Of a stretch of DNA of 45,829 bases, positions 9,565 through 38,127 are shown piece by piece. Each line of letters starts with the position of its first letter. Position 1 is the first letter of the stretch. This DNA comes from Robiginitomaculum sp. (lineage in GTDB: Bacteria; Pseudomonadota; Alphaproteobacteria; Caulobacterales; Maricaulaceae): positions 13,686 to 59,514 of the forward strand of contig NVVO01000008.1 of the NCBI GenBank assembly GCA_002733385.1, written 5' to 3'. The translations under genes and the position numbers were made by a program. The notes below the pieces were generated by a model that was not told where the DNA came from, did no database searches, and worked only from the letters and a program-made list of their open reading frames with translations.

Positions 9565-10524
9565 TCAGGCTCGCGGGTGTGCGCTTGCATGCACTCTCAT
9601 CAAACCGCTGATATCTACATCCGTATAAATTTGGGTGGATTTTAAACTGGCATGGCCGAGCAATTCCTGGATCGTGCGTAAATCCCCGCCCCCGGCCAGT
9701 AAATGTGTGGCGAAGGAATGGCGCAGGGCATGGGGCGTTGTGGATTGGGGAAGCCCAAGCGCGGCCCTTAGGTTTTGCATGGTTTTTTGTAAACTGCGCG
9801 GGCCGAGCTTGCCACCGCGCACGCCGCGAAACAGCGGCGCCCCGGCTTGCAATATATGGGGGCATAATTGAACATAAGCGGCTACGGCTTTGCCTATGAC
9901 TGGCAAAATCGGCACCAAGCGAGTTTTTTTGCCCTTACCTGTAATGAAAATACTGTCACCAAGCGGGTGGTCTCCGCCTTGCAGGGACAGGGCTTCAGAA
10001 ATACGCAAGCCGGCTCCGTACATGAGCAATAAAACGGCTCGGTCGCGGGCCGCAATCCAGGGGTGGTTTAGATTTGTGATGGTGTTGATCAGGTTCTGGC
10101 TGGCCTTTGGGCTTATGGGCTTGGGCAGAGATTTTTTCGGCTTCGGCCCCTGAATTAAGGTTATGGCGTCATTTTTGACATCCCAATTACGCTCAATATA
10201 ACGAAAAAAAGTGCGCAAAGCTGACAAATTGCGCGCCAAGGATCTAGAGGAGAGGGAACTGCCTGAAACCGCCTGTTGGCCGCGCCGTCTAAAGGCGAGA
10301 TAACTGCGAAAATTTCGAATGTTCAGGGCCGCTAGTTCCGTCAGTCCGACGGGCTTTCCGAGATGCTCAGAAACAAATTGCAAAAATGTAGAAACATCCC
10401 GCTGATAGGCCTGAAGCGTGTGTTCGGACAATCGGCGTTCTGCCCGCAAATGCTGGATGAATTTGCCAAAGATAGCTTCTGTAGTAATTTGACTTGTATG
10501 TGTACTCGGTTTGCGCATATTCAT
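9565..10524 (-). CDS. xerC: tyrosine site-specific recombinase XerC
   Basis: 319 aa. C-terminus HALRHSFATHLLAGGGDLRTIQELLGHASLKSTQIYTDV...HPRA carries the R-H-R-Y catalytic set. The GDLRxIQELLGHAxL stretch resembles XerC more than XerD. Confidence 0.75.
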   Translation of the reverse strand: MNMRKPSTHTSQITTEAIFGKFIQHLRAERRLSEHTLQAYQRDVSTFLQFVSEHLGKPVGLTELAALNIRNFRSYLAFRRRGQQAVSGSSLSSRSLARNLSALRTFFRYIERNWDVKNDAITLIQGPKPKKSLPKPISPKASQNLINTITNLNHPWIAARDRAVLLLMYGAGLRISEALSLQGGDHPLGDSIFITGKGKKTRLVPILPVIGKAVAAYVQLCPHILQAGAPLFRGVRGGKLGPRSLQKTMQNLRAALGLPQSTTPHALRHSFATHLLAGGGDLRTIQELLGHASLKSTQIYTDVDISGLMRVHASAHPRA

Positions 10525-10625
10525 AGAGTGCTGGTCGAATGTTAAGGAAGAATTAGGGGTTCCAATTTTTGTGAAATCAGATGGGTTGCCCCTACAGGGT
10601 TATATTGTTTAATGGTGTGATTTAT

Positions 10626-13058
10626 ATGGAAAATTGGCAAGACATGGTGGTTGGCGGGGAAATGAACTGGTCCATATGGATTTTGCTGTTTGGCGTGGCC
10701 GTTATAGCTTTGTTGATGGGGCTTTCGGTATTGATCAAACGAATATCCCCTTCCAATGCACCTTTGCCCAAGGAGGGTAGGGCAGAAGATGAAGCCCGTG
10801 ATAATTTATTGTCCGCCTTTAATGCCCAGACAACGCCGAGTTTAATTGTAAAGCAGGGAAAACCGGTGTTTTCCAACCCTGCCTATCAGGCTTTGGCGGC
10901 AGAGCTTGGGGTTGATGTGACCGACAATGTTCCGCCCAGCGTCGAGCGATTATTTGCCAAAAAAGAACGGGCCGCGTCTGCGGCTATTTACCGTTTGCAC
11001 CATACGACATCGAGCAATGATATCGGTAAGGAAACCATCCGTACATTGGACGTTGCTGGCAACTACCGGGCTTTTAACGTGCGGGTTTGTTCAATTGAGA
11101 ATGGCCAGCTCTGGCAAATTGAAGATCAGCCGCAGGGTAAGCTAGCGGACATGGATATGCTTTCAGAAGCGCCAATAGGTCTGTTTTCTGTGACCACAGA
11201 CGGCACCGTCATAAAGACAAATTCAGTTTTGCGCGGTTGGCTAGGCTTTGAAGCGGGGGCAATGCCCAATAATATGAAGGCGTTTATCGAAGCCCCCGCA
11301 GCCTTGCTGGACAGCCCGCAAATTCCGGGTCGCACTGTGCGCAGCGATACCCGGCTTATTACACAAAAAGGCGTCGTGTCTCCGGTTGCCATGATGGGGG
11401 GGTGGCACGAAATGGATTCTGGGGATATCTATGCCAGCGTTGCGGTTTATGGTCATTCAGGACTTGGCACCCGCCCGGCAGAGATCGCTGAAACATCTAC
11501 CCCGCAAGATGAAATAAACAGTCCGGCTCCGGCTAATCCATCTGGGGCCGGCGAAGAAGCGGCAATAGCGGATATACCATTTGGTGTCGTGAAACTTGAC
11601 AGTACAGATTTAGACACGGCAGTTGTTTTGGCCGCCAATAAAGAGATGACGAAAATGCTGGGTCGTGAAGTGGACGGCGGTGTTTTATTTAAGTCTTTTT
11701 TCGTGGACGACCTGACCAGTTCAGCTTTTATCGAAGCCGGTATAAATGTGACAAAAGGCCCGGTTGATGTCTATTTGAACGGTAAGAAAGAATGCCCGGT
11801 TGATGTTTATTTTACCAAGCCGGGAGACCAGTCGGAAGAAAGTGGATGTATTGTCTATATTGTTGATGTGCGTAGCAGAAAGGCACTGGAAGACAAACTT
11901 GGACAGTCGCAAAAAATGCAAACCATAGGGCAGTTAACAGGCGGTATTGCCCATGACTTTAACAATCTTTTGGTCGCCATACGATTGAATACAGACATAT
12001 TATTGGGTCGCCACCCGGTCGGAGACCCGTCCTATCCTGAGTTGCAGAGGATCAACCAGACCGTTTCGCGAGCGACTGGCCTCGTGCGAAAACTATTGGC
12101 ATTTTCACGCCAGCAAACCCTGCGTACCGAAGTTCTTGACGTCAATGATACTTTGTCGGAGCTAACATTTTTATTGCAAGATATATTGGTCGAGCGCGTA
12201 AAGTTGGAAGTTGTTCATGGCCGTGGTTTGTTGCCTATTCAAGCCGATAAGGGGCAATTTGAGGTCGTGTTGATGAACCTTTGTGTCAATGCCCGTGACG
12301 CTATGCTTGAAAAGGGCGGTGGTGTCATAGTCCTTAAATCAGCCAAGGTCAGTGATGATGAACTAAAAGCTCAAGATATAGCGCTGCGCAAAACCGGTGG
12401 ATATGTTCGCTTTGATGTTATTGATACTGGAACCGGCATGGACAAGGCGACATTGACAAAAATATTTGAACCGTTTTTTACCACCAAACCGCAAGGCAAG
12501 GGCACAGGGCTTGGCCTGGCAACGGTTAACGGCATTGTCGAGCAATCTGGCGGACATTTGCGTGTGGACAGCAAAATTGGCTACGGCACGACATTCAGCG
12601 TTTATATGCCAACCTCTACGGGGGATGTTAAAAAAATCATTAAGCCGCAGCCGTCTATTGTTGCCGCACGATACAAGCCGTCCGATTTAGCCGGGCAGGG
12701 CACTATTTTATTTGTTGAAGATGAAGACATCGTTCGCGCGCCCGCGGCCAAAATATTACGCAAACGTGGCTATACTGTCATCGAAGCCGACGGCGGCGAT
12801 GAGGCTTATGAAATATTGGCAGCGGGCGAGTATGATTTTGATTTGATGATTTCTGATGTGGTCATGCCAGATATGGGCGGGCCTGAACTGCTTGAAAAGG
12901 CCCGTGATTTGTTGGAGGGGACGCCTGTTGTATTTATTTCCGGGTTCGCTGAGGAAACTTTTTCGGAGCTTTTGTCCAAAGAACCAAATGTGACTTTCAT
13001 GCCAAAACCCTTTTCACTGACCCAATTGGCCGAGAAAGTAAAATCCGTCTTGAGTTAG
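10626..13058 (+). CDS. hybrid sensor histidine kinase/response regulator (CckA-like architecture)
   Basis: One N-terminal TM helix, a PAS-like sensory region, the HisKA box GGIAHDFNNLLVAI, HATPase motifs (NLCVNARDAM, DTGTGM, GKGTGLGLA) and a C-terminal receiver (ILFVEDED...MISDVVMPDMGG...KPF). The track ORF starts at 10581. I prefer the ATG at 10626 (MENWQDM), just before the TM helix. Confidence 0.85.
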   Translation: MENWQDMVVGGEMNWSIWILLFGVAVIALLMGLSVLIKRISPSNAPLPKEGRAEDEARDNLLSAFNAQTTPSLIVKQGKPVFSNPAYQALAAELGVDVTDNVPPSVERLFAKKERAASAAIYRLHHTTSSNDIGKETIRTLDVAGNYRAFNVRVCSIENGQLWQIEDQPQGKLADMDMLSEAPIGLFSVTTDGTVIKTNSVLRGWLGFEAGAMPNNMKAFIEAPAALLDSPQIPGRTVRSDTRLITQKGVVSPVAMMGGWHEMDSGDIYASVAVYGHSGLGTRPAEIAETSTPQDEINSPAPANPSGAGEEAAIADIPFGVVKLDSTDLDTAVVLAANKEMTKMLGREVDGGVLFKSFFVDDLTSSAFIEAGINVTKGPVDVYLNGKKECPVDVYFTKPGDQSEESGCIVYIVDVRSRKALEDKLGQSQKMQTIGQLTGGIAHDFNNLLVAIRLNTDILLGRHPVGDPSYPELQRINQTVSRATGLVRKLLAFSRQQTLRTEVLDVNDTLSELTFLLQDILVERVKLEVVHGRGLLPIQADKGQFEVVLMNLCVNARDAMLEKGGGVIVLKSAKVSDDELKAQDIALRKTGGYVRFDVIDTGTGMDKATLTKIFEPFFTTKPQGKGTGLGLATVNGIVEQSGGHLRVDSKIGYGTTFSVYMPTSTGDVKKIIKPQPSIVAARYKPSDLAGQGTILFVEDEDIVRAPAAKILRKRGYTVIEADGGDEAYEILAAGEYDFDLMISDVVMPDMGGPELLEKARDLLEGTPVVFISGFAEETFSELLSKEPNVTFMPKPFSLTQLAEKVKSVLS

Positions 13059-23937: not shown

Positions 23938-26178
23938 CTAGTTTTCAGTTGCGCAAGCTGCGCGCGTACATACCGGTACGATTAGCCGAGCGTCGATAAT
24001 GTTGATCACACCATCACCATTCAAATCACATACGTCACCGCACCGACTATCGGCAGTACTCAGGTTTTTGTCCGTGAGGAGTAAATTAATATCATTGCTA
24101 TCAACATCACCATCGCCGTCAATATCACCGCGAACAATATCTGGAACATTATTTACAATGACCGACGTTGTCGCTACGCGGACGAACTTTTCAACGACTT
24201 TTACGTTCGCGGGATCAATACCAGCAAACAAAGATTCCCCCTCATTAATTTGACTGCTCGGAGTTGTATTGACCGTGACGTCGAAGGTATAAGTTCCACT
24301 GCCGTCATAATTGCGAAATTCTGCTGTATAGATACCGTCACCAGCTATAAAATCCCCATTGGTTCCGTCATCAAACAGCGGAATATTTACGGGCCCGCCG
24401 TCAGGACGAATAACCGTTGCCGCAACTGCGCCGTTCGTGACCGCGATACCCTCAAATTGTGGGGTCGCTTCTATGATTATCGGGGCGGGAAAGACAATAT
24501 TTTCATCCCGGACACTCGCAAACAGAGCCCCCTTGCCACCGTCCGCAAACGATAAAAATTCCGCTCTGCCATCCGACACGGCATTCGCGGTAAATTCGGC
24601 CATCCATTCACCTGCTGCCGGGCTGGAAATCGTGAACTCAACGGCATTCCCCACATCATTCCGAACAACACCGCCGGAAGCCGTTACATCTGTACCCGCC
24701 GGGTCTAACAGTTTAATTGAGAAGTCATCTGAAGTTTGGGCGCGTGTAAAAATTACCGTAATCGTACTCACGTTATTTTCCACGAAAAGCGGAAAAGATT
24801 GAACTTCCGTATTTTGAAACTGAAGCGTGGGTTGTTGGGCCAATATTCCCTGGTTTGAGGCTTCGGCTGCCAGGCGAGCAAATTGCACTAGCAATTGAAA
24901 ACCATTCTGAACCTGAAAAAATTCTCCTCCGGTTTGTGTTCCGATTGTTTGTAAAGTCGACAATCCAGAACTCGATAGCCCACTGCCGATAGCAACCGAA
25001 ATAACGGCAACCCCTTCATTTTTTATCGACGGGATCACGCTTATGGGATTGGTTCCAGTGTTATGGTCTCCGTCACTGAACAGGATAATTAACTCGTTGC
25101 ACGATCTGGATGTTTGAGAAGTGAGTTGAGTTAAACCTGCCTGCAAACCACCTCCTATATTCGTCAACCCACTAGCGACTAGACTATTTGCGGCAGCATT
25201 CACGCTAGCAACATGTGCAGGTGTCGCCAAAGCAAGGTTAGTGTTAACACCCGCTGAAGAGGAGAATGAAGCCAAGCCTACCGAGTCTTGCGCTTTCAAT
25301 ATATTGGTAAATAGGGTTACACCCTGCTTGGCAAAACCAATACGATTGTCGGTCTGCATACTCCCGGATCGGTCGACAACCAGCATCGTTTTCAAGTTGC
25401 CTGATGCATCCTCGAAAGTGACTGTGTGTGCCGCGGGAGCTGCAGACACAGGTAATGCTTTCGGGGCTATAGCCGGGTATTTTGATTTTGCGATGGTTTC
25501 CCAATCTGACTCATTATTATTAATTGAACTTTGAAATGTATCCCGGTCTGGGTCGTGGTTTGATTTGACGCTCAATTCATTGAGCGTGTACGTTGTACCG
25601 TTCCCATTTGGGCCGCGACCACCTCGCGTAAAATAATTATCCATCAGCGAGTAATTCAATGTCGCTGTCTCAGCGCTGGCAGGCGCATTCTCGGCGTTCC
25701 CCATCGGACCTGAGTATTCGTCAGCGATACTATAGGCATGGTGAACATGTTCATGAGCAATTGTGTAGGAGTCGCCATCTACGCCACTTTTAGCGTTGAA
25801 ATTAGAGTCATAATACAAATTAACATGCTCGCCGCGTGTGCCGTATTTACCGAGTGTTGCGAAAGCTCTGCCGGAACCCGAATTTATCCAGTACTCTGCC
25901 GCTTTTGAAGCGCCGCTATCGTTGATGACACGAATGTTTCCAAATCTGTGCTGATTATCCGTAGCGTCAGCTAAAATTTGACTTCCAGAATTAAAACGTT
26001 CTTTTATGCGTTTAATTTGCGCATCAGAGGCTTTGAATCTTACAGATACGCAAAAATTGAAATGTCCATTACTGGCATCAAATTCACCGGTTCCGGCATT
26101 CGCATGGCCTGTGCCAAGCGGTGATATAATTGCCAGAACGGCAATCGCCGACACGAATGTGAAAAACTTGGACATCAT
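23938..26178 (-). CDS. secreted CLCA-like zinc metalloprotease / von Willebrand A protein with C-terminal dockerin
   Basis: Start at the ATG at 26178 (MMSKFFTFVSAIAVLAIISPLGTGHANA signal peptide) with AGGAG 7 nt upstream. HEHVHHAYSIADEY has the same spacing as the CLCA N-terminal protease motif HEWAHLRWGVFDEY. VWA MIDAS residues are VVDRSGSM ... GLTNIG ... FSDGD. Beta-rich domains follow, including a DDGTNGDFIAGDGIY motif. The last 65 aa are two dockerin repeats (GDIDGDGDVDSNDINLL and CDLNGDGVINIIDARLI). Confidence 0.75.
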   Translation of the reverse strand: MMSKFFTFVSAIAVLAIISPLGTGHANAGTGEFDASNGHFNFCVSVRFKASDAQIKRIKERFNSGSQILADATDNQHRFGNIRVINDSGASKAAEYWINSGSGRAFATLGKYGTRGEHVNLYYDSNFNAKSGVDGDSYTIAHEHVHHAYSIADEYSGPMGNAENAPASAETATLNYSLMDNYFTRGGRGPNGNGTTYTLNELSVKSNHDPDRDTFQSSINNNESDWETIAKSKYPAIAPKALPVSAAPAAHTVTFEDASGNLKTMLVVDRSGSMQTDNRIGFAKQGVTLFTNILKAQDSVGLASFSSSAGVNTNLALATPAHVASVNAAANSLVASGLTNIGGGLQAGLTQLTSQTSRSCNELIILFSDGDHNTGTNPISVIPSIKNEGVAVISVAIGSGLSSSGLSTLQTIGTQTGGEFFQVQNGFQLLVQFARLAAEASNQGILAQQPTLQFQNTEVQSFPLFVENNVSTITVIFTRAQTSDDFSIKLLDPAGTDVTASGGVVRNDVGNAVEFTISSPAAGEWMAEFTANAVSDGRAEFLSFADGGKGALFASVRDENIVFPAPIIIEATPQFEGIAVTNGAVAATVIRPDGGPVNIPLFDDGTNGDFIAGDGIYTAEFRNYDGSGTYTFDVTVNTTPSSQINEGESLFAGIDPANVKVVEKFVRVATTSVIVNNVPDIVRGDIDGDGDVDSNDINLLLTDKNLSTADSRCGDVCDLNGDGVINIIDARLIVPVCTRAACATEN

Positions 26179-26203
26179 GATTGTGCTCCTCAAAATTTAC
26201 GAT

Positions 26204-27055
26204 CTATGGTTGTCGGACTTTAGCATATTCAAAAATACTGAATTGCACTAAACCCGTATCAAATCTAAACATCCCTTCTTTAATTTTTATTCGGTTTATT
26301 GCCCGACCGGAATGTTCGAAAGGAATAAAAATACGAGGCTTATGCAAGCAGGCCTCTAGTGCCGTATTTCCGACAATAGTTTCCAAAGTTCGTTGTTTGA
26401 TGAGACTGTCGGAATTAATCCCTTTGGCACGTCGCGAGCTAACGGTTTCGCACCGCAGTGCGGCATTGACGACGGAAGAGGAGGCGGTGTTTGGCAATTC
26501 TTGCATGTCCCTAAATACGTCTAAAAAATCGTGGATTTGCTTGGATTTAGCGAGGTTCAAACTGCGCATGGAAGCCAAAGCATTGGAAGCGAAATGTGCA
26601 AAATGCACAGTATGAATATCTCCTTCAACCACTCCTGTCGGACGCTTGGCGACCACCATCTCCTTGTTCGTCGCATCGGTCCAGGTGGATAGATAAATCT
26701 GTGCAAGTTCAGGAGTAATCATTTTGTACCGAATGTCTGAAATTGTCAGGCCATTTGGTTGATAGGCGACGATCTGAACACAACCCGTATCTGCAATACT
26801 TATCTGGCGAGCGGTAAAGTCAAGAAGAGGTTTATGATTGAGAATTAGGGTTTTCTTCGGTGCAGGTGAACGCAAGCAATCGGATACTATCCCCTGCAAA
26901 GCCGGTTCGGTTCTCTGGGCGCTAGTAATGGAACTGGCCATGCTGGGTCGACAAGAAACAAGAAACAAGCCAACAAATATAGTTTTCACTATGCTTGGCG
27001 TGCCCAATTTAATTCTGCAGATGAGACCCCGCGCAATATGAGAAAACAATTTCAT
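26204..27055 (-). CDS. hypothetical lipoprotein/secreted protein (operon member)
   Basis: Start at the ATG at 27055 (MKLFSHIARG...), 4 nt after the upstream stop. Hydrophobic segment IFVGLFLVSC (possible lipobox). About 250 aa with no motif I recognise. Its stop lies 25 nt upstream of the dockerin-protein start. Confidence 0.5.
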   Translation of the reverse strand: MKLFSHIARGLICRIKLGTPSIVKTIFVGLFLVSCRPSMASSITSAQRTEPALQGIVSDCLRSPAPKKTLILNHKPLLDFTARQISIADTGCVQIVAYQPNGLTISDIRYKMITPELAQIYLSTWTDATNKEMVVAKRPTGVVEGDIHTVHFAHFASNALASMRSLNLAKSKQIHDFLDVFRDMQELPNTASSSVVNAALRCETVSSRRAKGINSDSLIKQRTLETIVGNTALEACLHKPRIFIPFEHSGRAINRIKIKEGMFRFDTGLVQFSIFEYAKVRQP

Positions 27056-27059
27056 TGTA

Positions 27060-27557
27060 TTACTCAAACTGAACATCGGTGGAGACCGTCAAATAGGATT
27101 CCTTATCGGAGCTAGACTCTATATCGCGGTAGGTCATTTCCCATTTTAGCGGCATCGTTTCGCTCGATTCGATTAAACCGTCGACGATAGAATTTAAGAT
27201 GATGGCTCCTGGTGCCGTTTTCACCACATTTTCAGGCAGGTTCGAAAAAGTAATATCGCTTGATGTAAATTGCATGAATTCTGGAATCTCACGGAGAAAC
27301 AATTTGAAGTCTTTAATGTTTGTATTCGACGTTTTTTCTACAAGGACATCGTAAGTGTATTGTTCTGGTTTGGTTCCGACGCCACCTATGAATTTCAAAG
27401 ATATCTTCAGAGAGAGTGGCTGCAATACGACTGGCGGCGGAGCTTGAATAACAGGTGCAATGGGTGTTTCAGCCCCACCACCACCGCAGGCGGAAGTCAA
27501 ACCTCCAACTACAATCAAAATCCCCATCTTTAATAAATCAAAGTTTTTCACAATCAT
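27060..27557 (-). CDS. small lipoprotein (operon member)
   Basis: 165 aa. Lipobox GGLTSAC followed by a GGGG/Pro-rich linker (APVIQAPPPVV) and a beta-rich domain of about 110 aa. No recognisable family. Confidence 0.55.
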   Translation of the reverse strand: MIVKNFDLLKMGILIVVGGLTSACGGGGAETPIAPVIQAPPPVVLQPLSLKISLKFIGGVGTKPEQYTYDVLVEKTSNTNIKDFKLFLREIPEFMQFTSSDITFSNLPENVVKTAPGAIILNSIVDGLIESSETMPLKWEMTYRDIESSSDKESYLTVSTDVQFE

Positions 27558-27608
27558 CCCTTTGTCTTAATCCGTTAATTTTAACGCAAAAGTGCATGCA
27601 CAACAGAA

Positions 27609-29075
27609 TTAGAACACGATACGTAGCGTCGCTGAACCAATGTGTTGTGTTGTGTTGGAGCCAAACAGCCCTTTATATCCAAAATTTATGCTGGTATCTT
27701 GGCGTATGCCTATACTAATCCCCGGTTCTATCGTGAACATATCACTGTCTATCAAATCGAACTGGGCTCTTATGTCCGGCACCGTCGCCGCCAAATTATC
27801 TGCGAATAAAGCGTTTATTTGAAATTCATCACTAGATGTACTTTGCCAACCCAACCCGAGATGAGGGCGAACTTTAGCACTACCTGACCCGCTGTGCGTT
27901 TTACTGAAATCTACTTTAATATATACTACCGTGCTATTATCAGATGATTGTTGAGCGAAAACCGTCAATACATCTGCACCGGTTTCTTTAAGATCATCGA
28001 TTTCGGTTTTGACCGCGGCTACTGAGGCGGATGGTATAACTGTAATTCCGTTCATTTGCGTTTCATAACTTGCGCGCAACATTACGCTGGTGCTGGTGAC
28101 ATTAAATGGAGTTCTCGAGACCATTCCTCCCAGATTTGCATGTGTAATCCATAGCGCTCCGTCACTATTTGTGCGCGTATAACTTCCGGTCACTACGAAG
28201 GGGTCAAAGTTCCACCCCACAACACCGTTAAACGAAAATCTATCTCCGTCATCAATGGAACTGGTATTCATATAGTTTGTATTAAAACTGCCGGCTGAGA
28301 TACCACCTCCGAGCATCAATCCGCCTTTTAATTGAACCAATCCGCCGCCGAAATAACTTGTAGAATTTTCGTTTACGGCAATTGTGTTGAATTTGGAATC
28401 CGCATAACTACCGCCTACGAACAAACAGGCCTTGTTCCCCGAATTACCGCTGAGTTTTTTTATGAATCTATGATCGCATGACTGGGTAAGATCGGCAAAA
28501 GCAATATTTGCCATCAGGGTTCCGCTGAGGGGTTGAGCAAATTCATCAACTGAAGTGCGGTCAACCAGCATGACCGTCACCCCGTTCAAGATCGGGCTAA
28601 GAGCATTCCCGTCCGCATCAGCAAAGGCGAGGCCCGATAGTGAAAAATTTGCCGCTCCCACATTTTGCGCCAGAAACGTCAGTGACCCCAATGGGAGGGT
28701 ATTGCTTTGCGCGGAATTTAAGTTGGCGGCGCTCTCAAGAGAAACCTCAAAAATTCCCAATTGACCTAGCATCGTTGCATCGGTTCCAAATAGAGAATTT
28801 GCCGGATTTGCACTTAATGCAGGACCGAGACTGTTTCCGAGCAACGACACCAAATTGCTGTCAAACAAAAGTAAAAAGTCATAAGCCCCCAAAGACGGCA
28901 CCCCTGACGCTGTCAAATTCGAAATCAGTAGGGATAAGTCGAAAGTTGTTCCAACTCTGACATATTGTACCTGGGAGTCTAACGATATGGTTTGAGCATT
29001 TGCAGGTAAATATCCTATACAAGTCGAAATCGCCGTCGCAATTACAGCCTTTTTTATGAAATCCGGTTTTTTCAC
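27609..29075 (-). CDS. autotransporter outer-membrane protein with a cohesin-like passenger domain
   Basis: Signal peptide ...STCIGYLPANA/QT. Residues 31-174 or so fit the cohesin pattern (VRVGTTFDLSLLISNL..SLGAYDFLLLFDSNLVSLL ... LGSLTFLAQNVGAANFSLSGLAFADADGNAL). The C-terminal 300 aa or so have alternating beta-strand character and end GSATLRIVF (terminal aromatic), as in autotransporter beta-domains. The GTG at 29075 lies 6 nt from GGAGG. The track start is the GTG at 29081. Confidence 0.65.
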   Translation of the reverse strand: MKKPDFIKKAVIATAISTCIGYLPANAQTISLDSQVQYVRVGTTFDLSLLISNLTASGVPSLGAYDFLLLFDSNLVSLLGNSLGPALSANPANSLFGTDATMLGQLGIFEVSLESAANLNSAQSNTLPLGSLTFLAQNVGAANFSLSGLAFADADGNALSPILNGVTVMLVDRTSVDEFAQPLSGTLMANIAFADLTQSCDHRFIKKLSGNSGNKACLFVGGSYADSKFNTIAVNENSTSYFGGGLVQLKGGLMLGGGISAGSFNTNYMNTSSIDDGDRFSFNGVVGWNFDPFVVTGSYTRTNSDGALWITHANLGGMVSRTPFNVTSTSVMLRASYETQMNGITVIPSASVAAVKTEIDDLKETGADVLTVFAQQSSDNSTVVYIKVDFSKTHSGSGSAKVRPHLGLGWQSTSSDEFQINALFADNLAATVPDIRAQFDLIDSDMFTIEPGISIGIRQDTSINFGYKGLFGSNTTQHIGSATLRIVF

Positions 29076-29214
29076 AAACACCCTCCACCCATGGACGCAT
29101 TGTATTTACCGACGGGGTCAAAGTGAAGCGCCCTTCCAATTTGACATTTCTTCTCTTAACATAAACTCCATAAATTGCAAGCGGATTTACAAATTCTGTC
29201 ACCGAGAACTAGGC

Positions 29215-32061: not shown

Positions 32062-34374
32062 TCACACCCGGCCATAGTTCAAGGCCGCGTCGCACAGGAG
32101 ATAGGCCCGGCCAGTTTCACTTTCGAGTTTTGTGCGGATAGCTTCGCGGCTGACACCCAATTGTTCAAGTGAGCGGTCAAAACGGGTCGCGAATTTGATG
32201 GTTTTCTCACTTAGATCATCATTAACCGCCAAAGATTTTACTAAATGTTCCACCGGATTTTTTAGTCGTGCCTTGACGCATTTACTCATGGCCTCATGAC
32301 CGCTTACGGCCCGGGCATTGCTGGCTTCGATGATGCAACCGTCGTCGACAACCGCATTTACCGATAATCCCAATTGGGCCAAATCAGCCAACAAAACATC
32401 ATCATCGCTTTTGCTTTGTGTTTCGGATACGGCTTTGGGTTTTGACGGGGCGACAATATCAAGACTGGAAGGGGTGTTAGCTTTCGCCTTTGATTTGAAA
32501 ATATTGCGAAACAATCCGCCTGATTTAGATTTGGTATTGCGCTCATTGTCAATTGGGACAGACCTTCGGATGGTTACATCAGCTATATCTGGCAAGTTTG
32601 ATGCTTGCGGCGAGTTTTGCGCGGGTGTTGGTACGTTTGCATCTAAGGCAGGCTCTTCATTTTCTCTCAAAGATGGTTCATTTTTTCTCAAAGAAGGCTC
32701 AGGCGGAATTCTTTCGACATTTTGCCGCAATATATCAGGATCAATCTGGCCATCCACGAGTTCAAGCGGTGCTTGCTCATCAGGCTTTGGAACAGTGGTG
32801 TCCTCGATCATGACATCAAGTTTCTCGGAAGCTGTCTTGGGGGTAGGGGAGAGTTTTCTGTCTTTATCTTCCTGAGTAATTTCAATGAGAGGCTTGAGCC
32901 TGAGCCTGGTGCGCCTCCCAGATTTAGGCCGCTTCTTTTTTCCGACATGACCGGGCGGGCTATTATCCGTATCCGTATCCGTATCCTTATCTTTCTCGCT
33001 TTCATCCGGAACAAGCTCTAAGGACCTAGGTTGTTTATTACCAATTCGGCTTTGCAGTCCGGCCATTTCTTGCTCAATACGGGCGATTTCCTTACGGGTT
33101 AACTCAAGACTGTCTTGCACACGTTGGGCCGCCATATCGCTGATGCTTTGGGCATGTTCCGTGGAATATTGCACCATATCGCGCATTTCTGCGAACCGGG
33201 CCTTGACGGCATTGTCCGCCAAAGATGCAGCCTCGGCCAAAGCTTCAATGGTTTGCTTGCCCGTGCGCGAGGCTTCCGTAAGGCTTTCTGCGCTGGCTTG
33301 GGCAGACAGGGACAAGTCGCGCATTTTGCTCAAACGCTCTTGCATGCTGGCCCCCAAGGATGTTTGCTCATCGCGCAAATGCTCTATCATGGCCGTCAGC
33401 TCACCGGCATGTTTTTTGTAAACAGTATCCAATTCCTCGGAGCGTTGGCGAATAATGTCCCCCAGGCTCTTGATATCTTCGTGGCTGGCACTGAGTGTCG
33501 AGGCGGCTTGAACCGTGTTGGAACGGACAATATCGGACGCTGAATTGATCTTGGCAGTGGCACCTTCGACGCTGATCCGGGCTTCCTTGATTTTTTGCTC
33601 GGCAATCTGCACGGCTTTGGCCAGATTGTCCGTGTGCATGGTCAAGGTGTTGGACAGGCTTTCCATGCTCAAGTCCAGGGTTTGTGTCATATCGATCAGG
33701 GTTTGTTTCTGGACATTGACGCTCTGATTAATGGTGGCAACGGTTTCGCGCACATCACTGTTTGCGGTTTGCATGGTTTCGGCCTGAATTTGCACAGCGT
33801 CGTCCATTGCACCGAGGCGCATAAGGGCGGTTTCAAGCCTGTTGTCCACATGGTCAATTTGCGCCGCAATGGTTTCCGCCATGATTTTACTCTTTCCAAT
33901 GACGGTTTTATCCGGCGTGGTCAGGGCGCTGGCCGCCAGATTAAGGGCATGTGCCTGGCTAGACAGTTTCGCCAATTGTTTGAGACAATATGCCGTCACA
34001 ATAATCAGCAAGATCGGGCCAAGCACCAACACTGCAATGGAGGCCCACTGTAAAGGTGTATTGGTTTGCCAACTATTGGCGACATCCAGAACAATAAACA
34101 ATAATGCACCAACAATGATCAACCACAACAAACTTGCACCAAGCACTGCCCGTTTAATCCAGCCAAAATCAGGGCCGTCGGGCATGGTGGCTTGCATAGG
34201 TTCTCTTTGTTGTGTTGGTATGGGTTTTAAAATATCTACCAGATCTAGGCTATCAATTTCTTTGTCAGGTGTTTTCGCTACATGTGCCCTGCTTATACTG
34301 CCTCTATCTTCAATGCTCCGGGCTTCAATGCCCCCGGCTTCAATACTGGTTATTTTGATTTTTCTATCGACCAC
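32062..34374 (-). CDS. membrane-anchored long coiled-coil protein
   Basis: 770-aa ORF with a GTG start that is uncertain. Two TM helices (LGASLLWLIIVGALLFIVL; IAVLVLGPILLIIVTAYCL) are followed by about 300 aa of heptad-like Ala/Gln/Glu-rich sequence, a charged disordered linker with DTDTDTD, and a compact C-terminal domain of about 110 aa. Confidence 0.6.
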   Translation of the reverse strand: MVDRKIKITSIEAGGIEARSIEDRGSISRAHVAKTPDKEIDSLDLVDILKPIPTQQREPMQATMPDGPDFGWIKRAVLGASLLWLIIVGALLFIVLDVANSWQTNTPLQWASIAVLVLGPILLIIVTAYCLKQLAKLSSQAHALNLAASALTTPDKTVIGKSKIMAETIAAQIDHVDNRLETALMRLGAMDDAVQIQAETMQTANSDVRETVATINQSVNVQKQTLIDMTQTLDLSMESLSNTLTMHTDNLAKAVQIAEQKIKEARISVEGATAKINSASDIVRSNTVQAASTLSASHEDIKSLGDIIRQRSEELDTVYKKHAGELTAMIEHLRDEQTSLGASMQERLSKMRDLSLSAQASAESLTEASRTGKQTIEALAEAASLADNAVKARFAEMRDMVQYSTEHAQSISDMAAQRVQDSLELTRKEIARIEQEMAGLQSRIGNKQPRSLELVPDESEKDKDTDTDTDNSPPGHVGKKKRPKSGRRTRLRLKPLIEITQEDKDRKLSPTPKTASEKLDVMIEDTTVPKPDEQAPLELVDGQIDPDILRQNVERIPPEPSLRKNEPSLRENEEPALDANVPTPAQNSPQASNLPDIADVTIRRSVPIDNERNTKSKSGGLFRNIFKSKAKANTPSSLDIVAPSKPKAVSETQSKSDDDVLLADLAQLGLSVNAVVDDGCIIEASNARAVSGHEAMSKCVKARLKNPVEHLVKSLAVNDDLSEKTIKFATRFDRSLEQLGVSREAIRTKLESETGRAYLLCDAALNYGRV

Positions 34375-35071: not shown

Positions 35072-36895
35072 TTAAGGCCAAACAACCCGATAAACCAGCA
35101 ATTGATTGCTCGTATCGGTTTGAATTGGTTGTAACCAGTCAGGGGAATCACCATCACTTAATCTTGCCAACATGCCATTTGGCCCGTATTTTATCATCAA
35201 ACTGGTCTCATTACTGGCCCGACACGCAATCACATAATCTGCCTGCATAGCGATTACGGCATTTTTCGCAATTACTTCGCTCTCAATAAACATGTCAAGG
35301 GCCGCTAATATGCCGCTGGTGTTACGGTGATAGGGCGCAGAGGTAACGCTAAGTTTGGTGAAGTGTAATATGGGAGCCCCTAAATCAATTTGGGTCAGGG
35401 CCGTGCCAACAGGCAGGGTATTAAGAGCGGCCAAGTGGGTCTGGCTCGTACAGGATTGCGCCATATTGCCGGTATTTTCTGCTATGGTTTTTTCCTTGGT
35501 ATTTGCCCCCAAGATAAGCGGTATGGTCACCGGTGCCATGGCAATCATCAAAAACGCGCTAACCAATAGCTTTATGGGTGCAGGTTTAAATCGTCCGGCC
35601 CATTGTAGGGCATTGACCAATAAAAATGTTGCCAGAGGAATTGATAGTGCCGTGGCCAAAAACAATAACCTTGCTTGTAATAGTCCGGCGAGTAGGGATA
35701 AAATAACAAATAATATCAAAGTTCTGTGTGAAAGTCCTAACGATTTATTTTGTTTGCGCGCCGTGATAATATATCCCAATATGGCTAGAATGGGTAAAAT
35801 AATGGCCGCAATGCTAGCAACAAAATCCACTTGTGAAAATTGGATAAAATTCCCCGCCTCTGCAACATTGGAAAGCCAAATTTCTACCAAGCGGCTATCT
35901 AGGCCTGCATAGGGGCCTTTAAGGCATTGCGGGTAGATGGCAATGGTTATGATCAAGGCGACAACGCCTAAAAGACCCGCCACAAGCAATCGGAGCAAGG
36001 GCGTTTTAAGCTTGTGGTCCAGATAGCTTAGCCCCCACAAAACAACGGCGACCAGCAATGTCAATTGCAGATAAACGACGGATAAGGCATCACAGTTTGG
36101 GATAAACCAGTTTCTCGGCGTGGTGCTGACCAAAAGGCTAATGAAGGTTGTGAGCGCCAGACCCAGCCCGAAAAACCGCATTTTTTGTTTTGCCGCATGT
36201 TCAGAAAACACCCAGATCGAGACAACTGCAATACAGGCGGCAGCAACATAGGGGGCGCTTTCAATACCGATATAAAGACCAAGTCCGCATAAAACCCCTG
36301 CGTATATCAATGCTTTAGGATTATTTTCTGATGTAACTATAAGCCAGATCGTAGCCAAGGCCAAAACGATTTGCAGTCCGTGATGATCTATTCGCCCCAT
36401 GCCAAATTGCGCCAAGAGACCAAATGATAAAGCCAGCATAAAAGCGGCAATCAGCGGTGTCGCCCGGTGGTTTGATATTCTCCCTGCAATGGCTGTCGCC
36501 AAATATAGATAGACTAGCAATAAAATGCTTGGATAGGCGATAATTGTCACCAGTTCCGCCTTGGCCTGACCAAGCATCGGGGTCAAAATCTTAATTGGCC
36601 CGCCGACCAATATATCAGAAATACGTGACCAGTGAGAATTCAGCGGCTCTACCGGGTTGAGCCGGTATTGGTGCAAATCGAACCAGCTTTGTCCACCTAG
36701 CCAATCGCGGATTTCCGCCATGCGCATATAATCATCATTGCCAAATAATTCGCCCCGTAATATTTTTGCGCCGTACCGGCTCCAGCTGACAAATAATAGC
36801 AAAAACCAGACCAGAAAAACGCTGCCGTGGCGCTCAATTAAATATTGAGAGCGCGCGGACAATTCGCCGGGCTTATTTTGGGGTGATTTACTCAA
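35072..36895 (-). CDS. large polytopic membrane protein, possibly a GT-C-fold glycosyltransferase
   Basis: 607 aa, at least 12 predicted TM helices plus a C-terminal soluble domain of about 130 aa. The first loop carries an acidic motif, GNDDYMRMAEIRDWLGGQSWFDLHQYRLNP, reminiscent of the GT-C first periplasmic loop. The TTG start overlaps the upstream TGA (TTGA). Confidence 0.4.
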   Translation of the reverse strand: MSKSPQNKPGELSARSQYLIERHGSVFLVWFLLLFVSWSRYGAKILRGELFGNDDYMRMAEIRDWLGGQSWFDLHQYRLNPVEPLNSHWSRISDILVGGPIKILTPMLGQAKAELVTIIAYPSILLLVYLYLATAIAGRISNHRATPLIAAFMLALSFGLLAQFGMGRIDHHGLQIVLALATIWLIVTSENNPKALIYAGVLCGLGLYIGIESAPYVAAACIAVVSIWVFSEHAAKQKMRFFGLGLALTTFISLLVSTTPRNWFIPNCDALSVVYLQLTLLVAVVLWGLSYLDHKLKTPLLRLLVAGLLGVVALIITIAIYPQCLKGPYAGLDSRLVEIWLSNVAEAGNFIQFSQVDFVASIAAIILPILAILGYIITARKQNKSLGLSHRTLILFVILSLLAGLLQARLLFLATALSIPLATFLLVNALQWAGRFKPAPIKLLVSAFLMIAMAPVTIPLILGANTKEKTIAENTGNMAQSCTSQTHLAALNTLPVGTALTQIDLGAPILHFTKLSVTSAPYHRNTSGILAALDMFIESEVIAKNAVIAMQADYVIACRASNETSLMIKYGPNGMLARLSDGDSPDWLQPIQTDTSNQLLVYRVVWP

Positions 36896-38127
36896 TTGAA
36901 CGTATCCAGGCTTTGCTTGGCAGGAATGAGCGGACGGCGGGTTAGATACATAATCAGGCAGACCAGAGACAGGCTGATGACCAGTAATAAACTGTCCAAG
37001 CCAGTGTTCAAGCCGACTTTAAATACGGTCGGGACGGGCAGGGCGGAGTTGTCATAACCGACAATTGCCGCCGCAAAAATATTATTGGCCGTATGCATGC
37101 CAATGGCGGTTTCAAGTCCGCCGTCAATATAGGTGAGAACGCAGGCAAATAGGCCAAAGAAAAAATACCCGGATAAAGCCACGAAAATAGAATGCCGTTT
37201 TACGGTTTCGGCCACTTCAGGATTACCAAGGTGCAGGGCGGCAAACCCGGCGCTTGTCAGCACAAATACGACCCAGGGGTTTTTGATATATTGCGCAAGT
37301 CCTTGGTTTAAATACCCCCGCAAGGCTATTTCCTCGGTGGCGGATTGCAAGGGAATAAACAGCAATGTTACAGGCAAATACATCCAGAATTTGGCCGGAT
37401 CAAACACCAGTTTCACGGGGCTAAGGCCTGTAGCATGGCTGCCATAGGTGACGGCGGTAGCGATGGCCCACACTACCAGTATAGCAAAGAACATGCGGCC
37501 CCAACGAAATTTGAAATGAGCTGTGTGCAGGGATAAAATTGTTCGTTTTTGCACATATTTAACTCCAAGCCACAGACCGATGGCCATGGGCGGGAACATC
37601 AAGAGCACAGATAAGTAAACCAAAGCGCTTTTGGACATCCAGTCATTGAGCATGTCCATGTCATCAGGGTTGGAGCTTGTCATACTAAGATAAATTAAAG
37701 CGGAAAATGAGACAAATGCAGACACGGCTGCAATGGTAAATACGGCTTTGCGGGATTTGGGCGAAAAGCTATTGCTGGTCATATAGAGCAAAAAAGCAAT
37801 CAGAGAAAAGGCGAAAATCACCCTGCCGGTATATTTAAACCCATATTTAAATCTGGTTGCATCGGCGCTACCGGATTGCCCTTCACGTATGTTTTCTACA
37901 AGCATGGCCTCTACAAAGGCCGGGTCAATGGTGAAAATAACCAACCCCATAAGCGCGCCAAACACAATCTGACCATAAAACCATAGCATGACGGCGAACC
38001 AGAATACGGCCAACCATGTCCATAATTTGGTGTTGCTGTCTGTGGCTTGGGTAAAAAAGGCAGAAATGGGTGCCAGCGTTGTTTTATGTGCCTGCATAGG
38101 AATCCCTGAAACGGTTTTCCTAGGCAA
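36892..38127 (-). CDS. CPBP-family (CAAX/Abi) intramembrane glutamic metalloprotease
   Basis: Polytopic protein with the three CPBP motifs: EEIALRGYL (EExxxR), FAALHLGN (FxxxH) and HTANN (HxxxN). The track start is a TTG at 38127. An ATG at 38097 (MQAHKTT) is the alternative. Confidence 0.75.
   Translation of the reverse strand: MPRKTVSGIPMQAHKTTLAPISAFFTQATDSNTKLWTWLAVFWFAVMLWFYGQIVFGALMGLVIFTIDPAFVEAMLVENIREGQSGSADATRFKYGFKYTGRVIFAFSLIAFLLYMTSNSFSPKSRKAVFTIAAVSAFVSFSALIYLSMTSSNPDDMDMLNDWMSKSALVYLSVLLMFPPMAIGLWLGVKYVQKRTILSLHTAHFKFRWGRMFFAILVVWAIATAVTYGSHATGLSPVKLVFDPAKFWMYLPVTLLFIPLQSATEEIALRGYLNQGLAQYIKNPWVVFVLTSAGFAALHLGNPEVAETVKRHSIFVALSGYFFFGLFACVLTYIDGGLETAIGMHTANNIFAAAIVGYDNSALPVPTVFKVGLNTGLDSLLLVISLSLVCLIMYLTRRPLIPAKQSLDTFN

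Follow-up and report, generated by a model that had tools for sequence, protein, structure and literature searches.

A divergent bacterial CLCA homolog with a dockerin tail and a candidate cohesin-autotransporter partner encoded in the same gene cluster of Robiginitomaculum

CLCA proteins regulate the secretion of mucus and chloride and are studied in medicine. The mechanism of the CLCA protease was seen structurally only recently, by cryogenic electron microscopy (cryo-EM): in CLCA1, the catalytic zinc is bound by H156, H160, and D167, a second zinc is bound by E168, C187, C250, and H255, and a 48-residue β6-β7 extension plugs the active site and is cut between G694 and A695 (bioRxiv 10.1101/2025.10.18.683246). 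Bacterial homologs with the typical architecture had been described earlier from a few aquatic bacteria, among them Citreicella (now Salipiger), and were proposed to have been transferred from animals (Lenart et al. 2013, PMC3650047); the same idea returns in the cryo-EM preprint, which calls the CLCAsins a eukaryotic family (bioRxiv 10.1101/2025.10.18.683246). Here we analyze a gene from a 45,829-nt stretch of Robiginitomaculum sp. DNA (hereafter the window; coordinates are positions in that stretch), whose product an original prediction had read, from the sequence alone, as a CLCA-like protease fused to a VWA domain, Ig-like domains, and a dockerin. We conclude from sequence homology that the protein is a divergent bacterial homolog of the animal CLCA proteins (“CLCAsins”), and we posit that it is probably a secreted CLCA-type zinc protease/adhesin, tethered through its dockerin to a cohesin that a neighboring autotransporter would display. 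Residues are numbered along the 751-aa open reading frame (ORF) that begins at TTG 26193; in the annotated protein the numbers are 5 lower (E148 becomes E143).

The similarity to human CLCA1 (hCLCA1) is far beyond chance. BLASTP returns one collinear high-scoring segment pair that joins aa 60-639 to hCLCA1 residues 50-675 (E=2e-24) with the zinc motifs in register, and a profile of 34 family members aligns with hCLCA1 by hhalign over 560 columns (99.95%, E=6.9e-38), ending at hCLCA1 residue 680. The N-terminal domain taken by itself (aa 34-250 against hCLCA1 22-295) reaches 97.9% and E=4.8e-13 by hhalign and 71.3 bits by HMMER, whereas ten shuffles of the target gave E≥0.019; it is the single collinear alignment, together with these shuffled controls, that takes the similarity beyond chance. 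The HExxH region, at which the original prediction expected a CLCA reading to fail in profile searches if it was wrong, thus does find CLCA1. Downstream, TIGR00868 (“calcium-activated chloride channel protein 1”) matches aa 205-643 (E=1e-29, model positions 247-682 of 863), and the relative P0116 (38% identity) has a precomputed match to PF08434. The hCLCA1 sequence used throughout (914 aa) reproduced 17/17 residue identities and numbers of the cryo-EM preprint (H156, E157, H160, D167, E168, Y169, C187, M238, C250, H255, the six disulfide Cys, and A695) and matched the 6pyo alignment. The collinear BLASTP, hhalign, and HMMER matches together support a bacterial CLCA-like protease-VWA protein; its Pfam CLCA and TIGR00868 scores miss the curated thresholds given below.

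Agreement with CLCA1 extends through the order of the domains (Table 1). The protease appears to be made without a pro-domain, the conserved domain beginning right after the signal peptide: family conservation sets in at AG.G.F, directly past it, and residues 22-31 have a predicted local distance difference test score (pLDDT) below 50 in the AlphaFold2 (AF2) model, which as a whole reaches a pLDDT of 86.4 and a predicted template modeling score of 0.85. In the metallohydrolase (MH) domain of that model, secondary-structure elements follow in the order β-β-αA-β-β-β-αB, and HEHVH lies on αB (138-154). The VWA domain that comes next has an intact metal-ion-dependent adhesion site (MIDAS), as the original prediction held on the strength of DRSGS (aa 274-278), the T of GLTNIG (T344), and the D of SDGD (D374). 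The CLCA1 VWA domain 6pyo is the best sequence match among solved structures (E=5.9e-9) and has a template modeling score (TM) of 0.82, normalized to target, in a Foldseek search with the full-length model; aligned to it, the VWA domain keeps D-x-S-x-S (here DxSGS), T, and D, the comparison on which a defective MIDAS would have appeared. Across two family alignments, D274, S276, T344, and D374 show no variation, and the conservation of S278 is at least 90%. The β-sandwich regions that had been predicted to follow the VWA domain resolve into a β-sheet-rich (BSR), jellyroll-like domain and a sandwich that resembles the inhibitory domain (ID) of CLCA1, both collinear with hCLCA1; the latter contains a match to the 37-residue NCBIfam model NF041940, “choice-of-anchor X” (aa 604-641, 2.8e-11). 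The fibronectin type III (FnIII)-like tail of CLCA1 is absent, and the remaining 65 residues are the dockerin.

The zinc motif could be aligned residue for residue with its hCLCA1 counterpart, in the register that had been predicted. The HExxHxxxGxxDEY pattern is present (the substitution at its Gly is taken up below), with HEHVH...DEY of the window protein opposite HEWAH...DEY of hCLCA1; among 50 relatives, H147, H151, D158, and Y160 are invariant and E148 and E159 are at least 94% conserved. The description of the motif as HExxH...E needs correction, however: because D167, not E168, binds the catalytic zinc in the CLCA1 cryo-EM preprint, the third ligand by homology should be D158, and E159 instead matches a ligand of the second zinc. 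M184 (in LMDN), the candidate Met-turn residue, is invariant in 50/50 and 34/34 relatives of the two alignments. Past the Met-turn, NELS208VKSNH213 aligns with VEFC250TEQNH255 of hCLCA1, and SDWETI with STWEVI. The distance from DEY to the Met-turn is 24 residues, versus ~70 in CLCA1, and the disulfide-rich “thumb” of CLCA1 is therefore absent.

Residues around the second zinc vary within the family. Positions 169, 208, and 213 are C/C/H in 32/50 and 26/34 relatives; the N/S/H of the window protein recurs only in its nearest relatives, including the other dockerin-bearing protein, P0071. On this pattern we infer that the subclade to which the window protein belongs has lost the structural second-zinc site. 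Positions 182 and 230 vary together, both being Cys in 23/50 relatives, a pattern that suggests a disulfide; in the window protein they are S and D. Farther downstream, D608, D614, and D619 (nt 24322-24378), in the choice-of-anchor X stretch, align with the Ca2+-site residues D644, D650, and D655 of hCLCA1; D608 and D614 are invariant in relatives, and D619 is at least 90% conserved. The β6-β7 loop (aa 644-669, nt 24187-24264) is ~26 residues long and contains a nearly invariant G652-E653 followed by x-L-F, so that a small residue and G or E are followed by a small residue, Leu, and an aromatic one, a pattern that resembles the CLCA1 cut site (S-G before the cut, A-L-Y after it). The pLDDT of this loop is at least 92 in the AF2 model, which is suggestive of a docked rather than a free conformation.

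The dockerin and its putative partner lie in the same tight group of four genes, all of one strand (23938..29081) and 51, -17, and 25 nt apart; the window contains exactly one dockerin and one cohesin. As originally predicted, the protease ends in a dockerin, with the two F-hand repeats DIDGDGDVDSND (690-701) and DLNGDGVINIID (723-734). Pfam Dockerin_1 (PF00404, cutoff 22.9) scores 23.8 bits on a C-terminal-third fragment and 22.4 on the whole protein, and the PDB dockerins 5lxv_B and 2y3n_B are matched with E ~0.003. The prediction counted 5 Cys in the last 35 residues and took them for a separate addition. There are four (718, 722, 742, and 747), and they belong to a conserved dockerin subtype, the same tail being found at six other loci beside cohesin genes; this subtype has two F-hands, often C..C ahead of the second repeat, and a terminus of the form ...L(L/V)CT(R/F)x(R/K/A)C(A/V)... 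(e.g., ...LLCTRPRCATQ).

The first gene of the cluster encodes a 490-aa protein whose N-terminal module is, by structure prediction, a cohesin fold and whose C-terminal part is an autotransporter barrel (PF03797, 3.3e-14, 53.7 bits against a cutoff of 26, aa 224-469). The cohesin AF2 model has a pLDDT of 92.5, and all of its top 50 Foldseek matches are cohesins (E down to 1.5e-9; TM 0.60-0.76 normalized to query and up to 0.80 to target). The module is homologous to a large family of ~200-aa proteins, 6/57 of which carry PF00963 Cohesin and 10/57 PEP-CTERM, and the family profile matches the PDB cohesins 3l8q (4e-4), then 5lxv_A and NagJ, over a range of 4e-4 to 0.05; no NCBIfam model is named for this cohesin, for the dockerin subtype, or for either of the small proteins encoded between autotransporter and protease. 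When 1.84 billion representatives were searched by HMMER with the 490-aa protein, only one other full-length relative was found (P0197, 39% identity over aa 25-485), the remaining matches being ~200-aa cohesins or barrel-only proteins; a natural cohesin-autotransporter fusion is therefore very rare. P0197 is encoded at 2478-3935 of L047; the next gene, truncated where the contig ends, encodes a lipoprotein whose VWA domain is N-terminal. The literature that could be searched describes cohesin-autotransporter fusions only as display systems made by engineers, and no paper in it joins cohesin, dockerin, and PEP-CTERM.

The pairing of this cohesin family with this dockerin subtype recurs. We examined seven loci: the window, L043, and L044, L045, L046, L048, and L049, the last five being cohesin-family members on longer contigs. 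In 7/7, the cohesin gene adjoins one or more genes that end in the same dockerin subtype (two such genes in L049), and most of the ~200-aa cohesins at these loci end in a PEP-CTERM-type tail. The cargos are otherwise unrelated: they include a Cys-rich repeat protein of myxococcal origin, a BNR-like Methylomonas protein, small proteins encoded downstream of DUF676/PGAP1 lipase-like genes, a very large CARDB/TSP3 protein, and a protein of 729 aa without a family match. On L043 the cargo is CLCA-like: P0071, the nearest dockerin-bearing relative of the protease (50% identity), precedes a cohesin of 214 aa that has a PEP-CTERM tail and is 30% identical to the window cohesin. Weak homologs of the two small genes occupy equivalent positions there (165-aa protein, E=2e-6; 290-aa protein, E=3e-4), and a tblastn search for conserved neighbors at 42 protease-family loci found none except at L043; because only this locus shares neighbors with the window, the two small genes are tied to the dockerin-bearing subclade and not to the whole family. 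A partial 112-aa gene at the start of L043 proved unrelated to the autotransporter. What emerges looks like a display system in which a ~150-residue cohesin, with PEP-CTERM as its anchor or, in the two cases known, an autotransporter barrel, is encoded beside one or two dockerin-tailed cargos. Tethering, which the original prediction had raised as a suggestion, gains strength as a prediction from this cohesin encoded in the same gene cluster.

The comparisons above show the CLCA homology, the conservation of catalytic, MIDAS, and Ca2+-site residues, the cohesin fold, and the recurrence of cohesin genes beside dockerin genes. The scheme that we now posit goes further, and in it we infer catalysis, an interaction between this dockerin and this cohesin, latency or self-cleavage, the outer-membrane route, and the substrate. 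The protease would be exported by the Sec pathway; its catalytic zinc would be bound by H147, H151, and D158, with E148 as the general base and M184 in the Met-turn, and the VWA domain, with its complete MIDAS, would confer metal-dependent ligand binding. The dockerin would bind, in a Ca2+-dependent manner, the cohesin of the autotransporter encoded three genes upstream and displayed on the outer membrane, and the enzyme would thereby be held noncovalently on the cell surface. The β6-β7 loop, by analogy with that of CLCA1, probably fills the active-site cleft and keeps the enzyme latent, and self-cleavage might take place near E653/S654.

Several observations weigh against this reading. On the side of homology, the TIGR00868 match scores 103 bits, so that its curated cutoff of 900.85 is not reached, and Pfam CLCA (PF08434) gives 12 bits against a cutoff of 25.6, a partial match (aa 56-101, E=0.15) that does not cover HExxH. 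Pfam and NCBIfam scans gave no library match for the HExxH region, and the N-terminal 265 aa searched alone against Pfam and PDB sequences returned just the sub-threshold partial CLCA match (E=0.15) and otherwise nothing meaningful. VWA proteins dominate the full-length Foldseek search. On the side of the enzyme, the motif Gly (G155) is Ser in the window protein and Gly in 42/50 relatives; two of the four second-zinc ligands are replaced (E159, N169, S208, H213); and the β6-β7 loop has half the length of its CLCA1 counterpart (26 versus 48 residues) and was left unaligned by hhalign. On the side of tethering, the dockerin is borderline in Pfam and its part of the AF2 model has a pLDDT below 50, Pfam finds nothing in the window cohesin module by itself at E≤10, and no outer-membrane export system for the protease was seen in the window.

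These points bear on three other explanations. A CLCA-like enzyme that is freely secreted or stays in the periplasm, and whose dockerin is a Ca2+-stabilized tail or binds some other partner and makes no surface tether, would accord with the borderline dockerin score and with a window in which no outer-membrane export route is evident, and noncellulosomal dockerins without known partners are common. We nevertheless consider this unlikely: one gene of the cluster encodes a module with a cohesin fold, the same cohesin family stands beside the same dockerin subtype at 7/7 loci with unrelated cargos, and the putative partner has a surface anchor, an autotransporter barrel here and PEP-CTERM elsewhere. 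It is improbable, too, that the protein is mainly an adhesin in which MIDAS and β-sandwich bind a ligand and the metallohydrolase-like domain is silent or structural. The integrity of H147, E148, H151, D158, Y160, and M184, which are invariant or nearly so in 84 relatives, argues against it, such conservation being what an active enzyme under selection should show; in its favor are the loss of two second-zinc ligands and the Ser in place of the motif Gly, as well as the substituted active sites of many CLCA-family members (Lenart et al. 2013, PMC3650047).

Very improbable, finally, is a chance fusion in which a CLCA-like VWA module follows an M64 igalysin-type peptidase and not a CLCA-type catalytic domain, although HExxH...DEY is common to M64, 1/34 relatives hits Pfam Peptidase_M64 (8e-4), and in about half of the relatives a Cys precedes the Met-turn Met by two residues, an igalysin/archaemetzincin feature (bioRxiv 10.1101/2025.10.18.683246). 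In searches at equal database size, profile A2 scores hCLCA1 with E=5.3e-6 and no PDB M64 chain at E≤10, and the N-terminal domain is thus closer to CLCA than to the igalysins. EFC-x4-H and SxWExI past the Met-turn align with C250/H255 and STWEVI of CLCA1, Cys182 covaries with Cys230 (CC in 23/50), which is more disulfide-like than an M64-type site, and collinearity with CLCA1 runs unbroken into the VWA domain. Searched against the PDB, the narrow profile A2 found only designed TIM barrels, through repeated short DATD-like stretches, none of which passed alone; we treated these as an artifact. We retain a CLCA-type protease/adhesin tethered through its dockerin to the neighboring cohesin as the probable reading of the locus.

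The family to which the protease belongs is widely distributed. A word-indexed search with aa 34-265 found 18 homologs, mostly fragments, with invariant H-E-x-x-H-H...D-E-Y and L-M-D-N; a pattern scan over one genome per species found 42 loci in at least 10 phyla (among them Acidobacteriota, with many Pyrinomonadaceae, Opitutia, Planctomycetota, Myxococcota, Actinomycetota, Chloroflexota, Bacteroidota, Nostoc, and Salipiger thiooxidans); and a profile search found more than 146 protein clusters. Full-length relatives share the entire architecture, and Pfam at E<1e-3 finds CLCA (PF08434) in 2/34 relatives and Peptidase_M64 in 1/34. By BLASTP, hCLCA1 is about equally distant from all 77 bacterial relatives compared (23-28% identity), with no subclade clearly nearest the animals. 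The C-terminal appendages are diverse (P0019-P0138, A3 members) and comprise DUF11 repeats, Calx-beta, DUF4214, FG-GAP, PPC, T9SS Por_Secre_tail, FN3, and dockerin, a variety that fits the “choice-of-anchor” label of the preceding domain. One subclade (L028, L029, L031, L032, L034, L036, L040, and L041) has Cys-rich insertions of up to ~250 aa between DEY and the Met-turn (DEYDEQ.RFGG.CGIGPGF...), its matches lying near 10001-10800 in most of those loci; the insertions recall the enlarged C-terminal subdomain of animal CLCA1, and several members have Q for the E of DEY.

The protease gene itself probably begins at ATG 26178 and encodes 746 aa. The predicted minus-strand ORF of 751 aa (23938-26193) exists, but its TTG start is probably an artifact of mechanical ORF calling: AGGAG stands 7 nt ahead of the ATG, and the 100% identical public protein P0072, from a Robiginitomaculum sp. 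metagenome-assembled genome and named “hypothetical protein,” has 746 aa, and for these two reasons we prefer the ATG. The two small proteins encoded between protease and autotransporter have no match in Pfam, NCBIfam, or the PDB. The window is ordinary alphaproteobacterial chromosome, with mreBCD-pbp2-rodA, a xerC/D-like recombinase, and an NDUFS4-like gene. A mild oddity is that G+C falls to 0.434 across 26001-28000, a stretch with both small genes and the beginning of the cohesin-autotransporter gene, versus 0.47-0.51 in most of the window. A scan for promoters and terminators was at chance (14 versus 11.4 expected and 5 versus 6.6 expected). Elsewhere, a 770-aa ORF (32062-34374, minus strand) is without a significant family match, with a weak ATG17-like match only (E=0.007), and at 35072-38127 (minus strand) an ORF for a PMT_2-like glycosyltransferase (weak, E=3e-4) runs over the stop codon of a CAAX protease-family (Rce1-like) gene; these two may form a membrane protein modification pair.

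Table 1. Features of the gene cluster in the window and of cohesin-dockerin loci elsewhere (positions in the last row are those of the loci named)
Feature	Position	Strand	Remarks
CLCA-type metalloprotease-VWA-dockerin coding sequence	23938..26178	-	746 aa from ATG 26178; mechanical ORF 23938..26193, 751 aa from TTG
Sec signal peptide MMSKFFTFVSAIAVLAIISPLGTGHANA	26095..26178	-	Read from sequence; cleavage probably after ANA
MH domain, aa 34-250	25444..26094	-	Compact, CLCA-type, metzincin-like; hhalign, HMMER, AF2
Zinc motif HEHVHHAYSIADEY, aa 147-160	25714..25755	-	H147, E148 (putative general base), H151, D158, E159, Y160; aligned to hCLCA1 HEWAHLRWGVFDEY
M184, candidate Met-turn Met (LMDN)	25642..25644	-	Aligned to hCLCA1 M238 by hhalign
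NELSVKSNHDPD motif	25546..25581	-	Counterpart of hCLCA1 VEFC250TEQNH255NKE; S208 for Cys, H213 kept
VWA domain, aa 263-445	24859..25407	-	Pfam VWA 1.6e-16 (aa 271-433); intact MIDAS D274, S276, S278, T344, D374
BSR jellyroll-like domain, ~aa 446-562	24508..24858	-	All-β, pLDDT >85; collinear with hCLCA1 ~478-598; inside TIGR00868 match
β-sandwich homologous to CLCA1 inhibitory domain, ~aa 563-685	24139..24507	-	Holds choice-of-anchor X motif, Ca2+-site Asp, β6-β7 loop
Dockerin, aa 687-751	23941..24135	-	Two F-hand repeats; Cys 718, 722, 742, 747; terminal motif VCTRAACATEN
290-aa protein	26204..27076	-	Possible lipoprotein (LVSC lipobox); 25 nt upstream of protease gene
165-aa protein	27060..27557	-	N-terminal signal or lipoprotein-like sequence; 17-nt overlap with 290-aa gene
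Cohesin-autotransporter, 490 aa	27609..29081	-	Signal peptide, cohesin, linker, type Va β-barrel; last residue aromatic (...RIVF)
Cohesin module, aa 27-180	28542-29003	-	Homologs, profile, AF2 and Foldseek
Type Va β-barrel, aa 224-490	27612-28412	-	Pfam Autotransporter (PF03797)
Cohesin-dockerin loci	L043 4575-5219; L044 8001-10882; L045 6518-8582; L046 6937-8579; L048 5180-6636; L049 1-6582

A bacterial CLCA-like protease-VWA protein is, as such, already known, and our core claim is of a known kind because Lenart et al. (2013) already described bacterial CLCA homologs. New are a compact subfamily that is largely invisible to Pfam CLCA and a bacterial spread far wider than reported; new as well, as read from sequence comparison, are the loss of second-zinc ligands in a subclade, the dockerin in place of the FnIII tail, and a candidate cognate cohesin on an autotransporter. 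We advance tentatively the broader proposal that the locus is one instance of an undescribed natural Gram-negative cohesin-dockerin surface-display system with unrelated cargos, and that the wide occurrence of the CLCA MH-VWA-BSR-ID architecture among soil and aquatic bacteria of at least 10 phyla would weaken the case for animal-to-prokaryote transfer. If true, such a wide bacterial distribution, which bears on the proposed passage from animals to bacteria, would make a bacterial origin of the animal family possible, and the recurrence of one dockerin subtype beside an anchored cohesin would point to a general mode of noncovalent enzyme loading onto the Gram-negative outer membrane. A compact, cysteine-poor, nonglycosylated bacterial homolog would also be a tractable model for the regulation of a CLCA-type protease by its loop and VWA domain.

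Compared with metazoan CLCA1, the window protein has the same collinear MH-VWA-BSR-inhibitory order, HExxHxxx(G)xxDEY, Met-turn Met, MIDAS, and three Ca2+-site Asp, likewise appears to be made without a pro-domain, and shows the EFC-x4-H of CLCA1 as ELS-x4-H; it differs in its low identity (~23-25%), in a shorter C-terminal subdomain of MH that lacks the three “thumb” disulfides, and in having a dockerin instead of the FnIII-like domain and the C-terminal oligomerization region. The homologs of Lenart et al. (2013, PMC3650047) are likewise prokaryotic MH, VWA, and β-rich proteins of aquatic free-living bacteria, including alphaproteobacteria, and the Salipiger thiooxidans relative L034 falls within the present family (30% identity); that survey, however, reached few strains through Pfam CLCA_N, a model nearly blind to the present clade (2/34), and the word “dockerin” is absent from its text (PMC3650047). 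CLCA_X has HExxHxxxD, in contrast to the DEY motif of the window protein. Peptidase M64 (igalysins, e.g., PDB 3P1V) shares the extended HExxH...DEY, secretion, and the lack of a pro-domain, but M64 proteins have no VWA/BSR/ID, and the downstream motifs of the window protein match CLCA; the window protein has no Pfam M64 hit, the family profile hits no PDB M64 chain at E≤10, and its MH domain holds a single Cys, C48, whereas the second zinc of M64 is bound by E and three Cys around the Met-turn and αC.

With cellulosomal cohesin-dockerin pairs the locus shares a two-F-hand dockerin and a predicted cohesin β-sandwich, whose top structural matches are type I and type II cohesins. Here, in contrast, the pair would form a natural system of a Gram-negative alphaproteobacterium, with a single cohesin and no multi-enzyme scaffold; the cargo would be a protease/adhesin, not a carbohydrate-active enzyme; the dockerin has four Cys and an ...LCTRxxCA terminus; and the anchor is a β-barrel or PEP-CTERM, not SLH or sortase. 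Closest in design are the engineered cohesin-autotransporters of Escherichia coli and Pseudomonas putida, in which the same fusion displays dockerin-tagged enzymes: the natural cohesin-autotransporter fusion mirrors the designs that engineers built independently.

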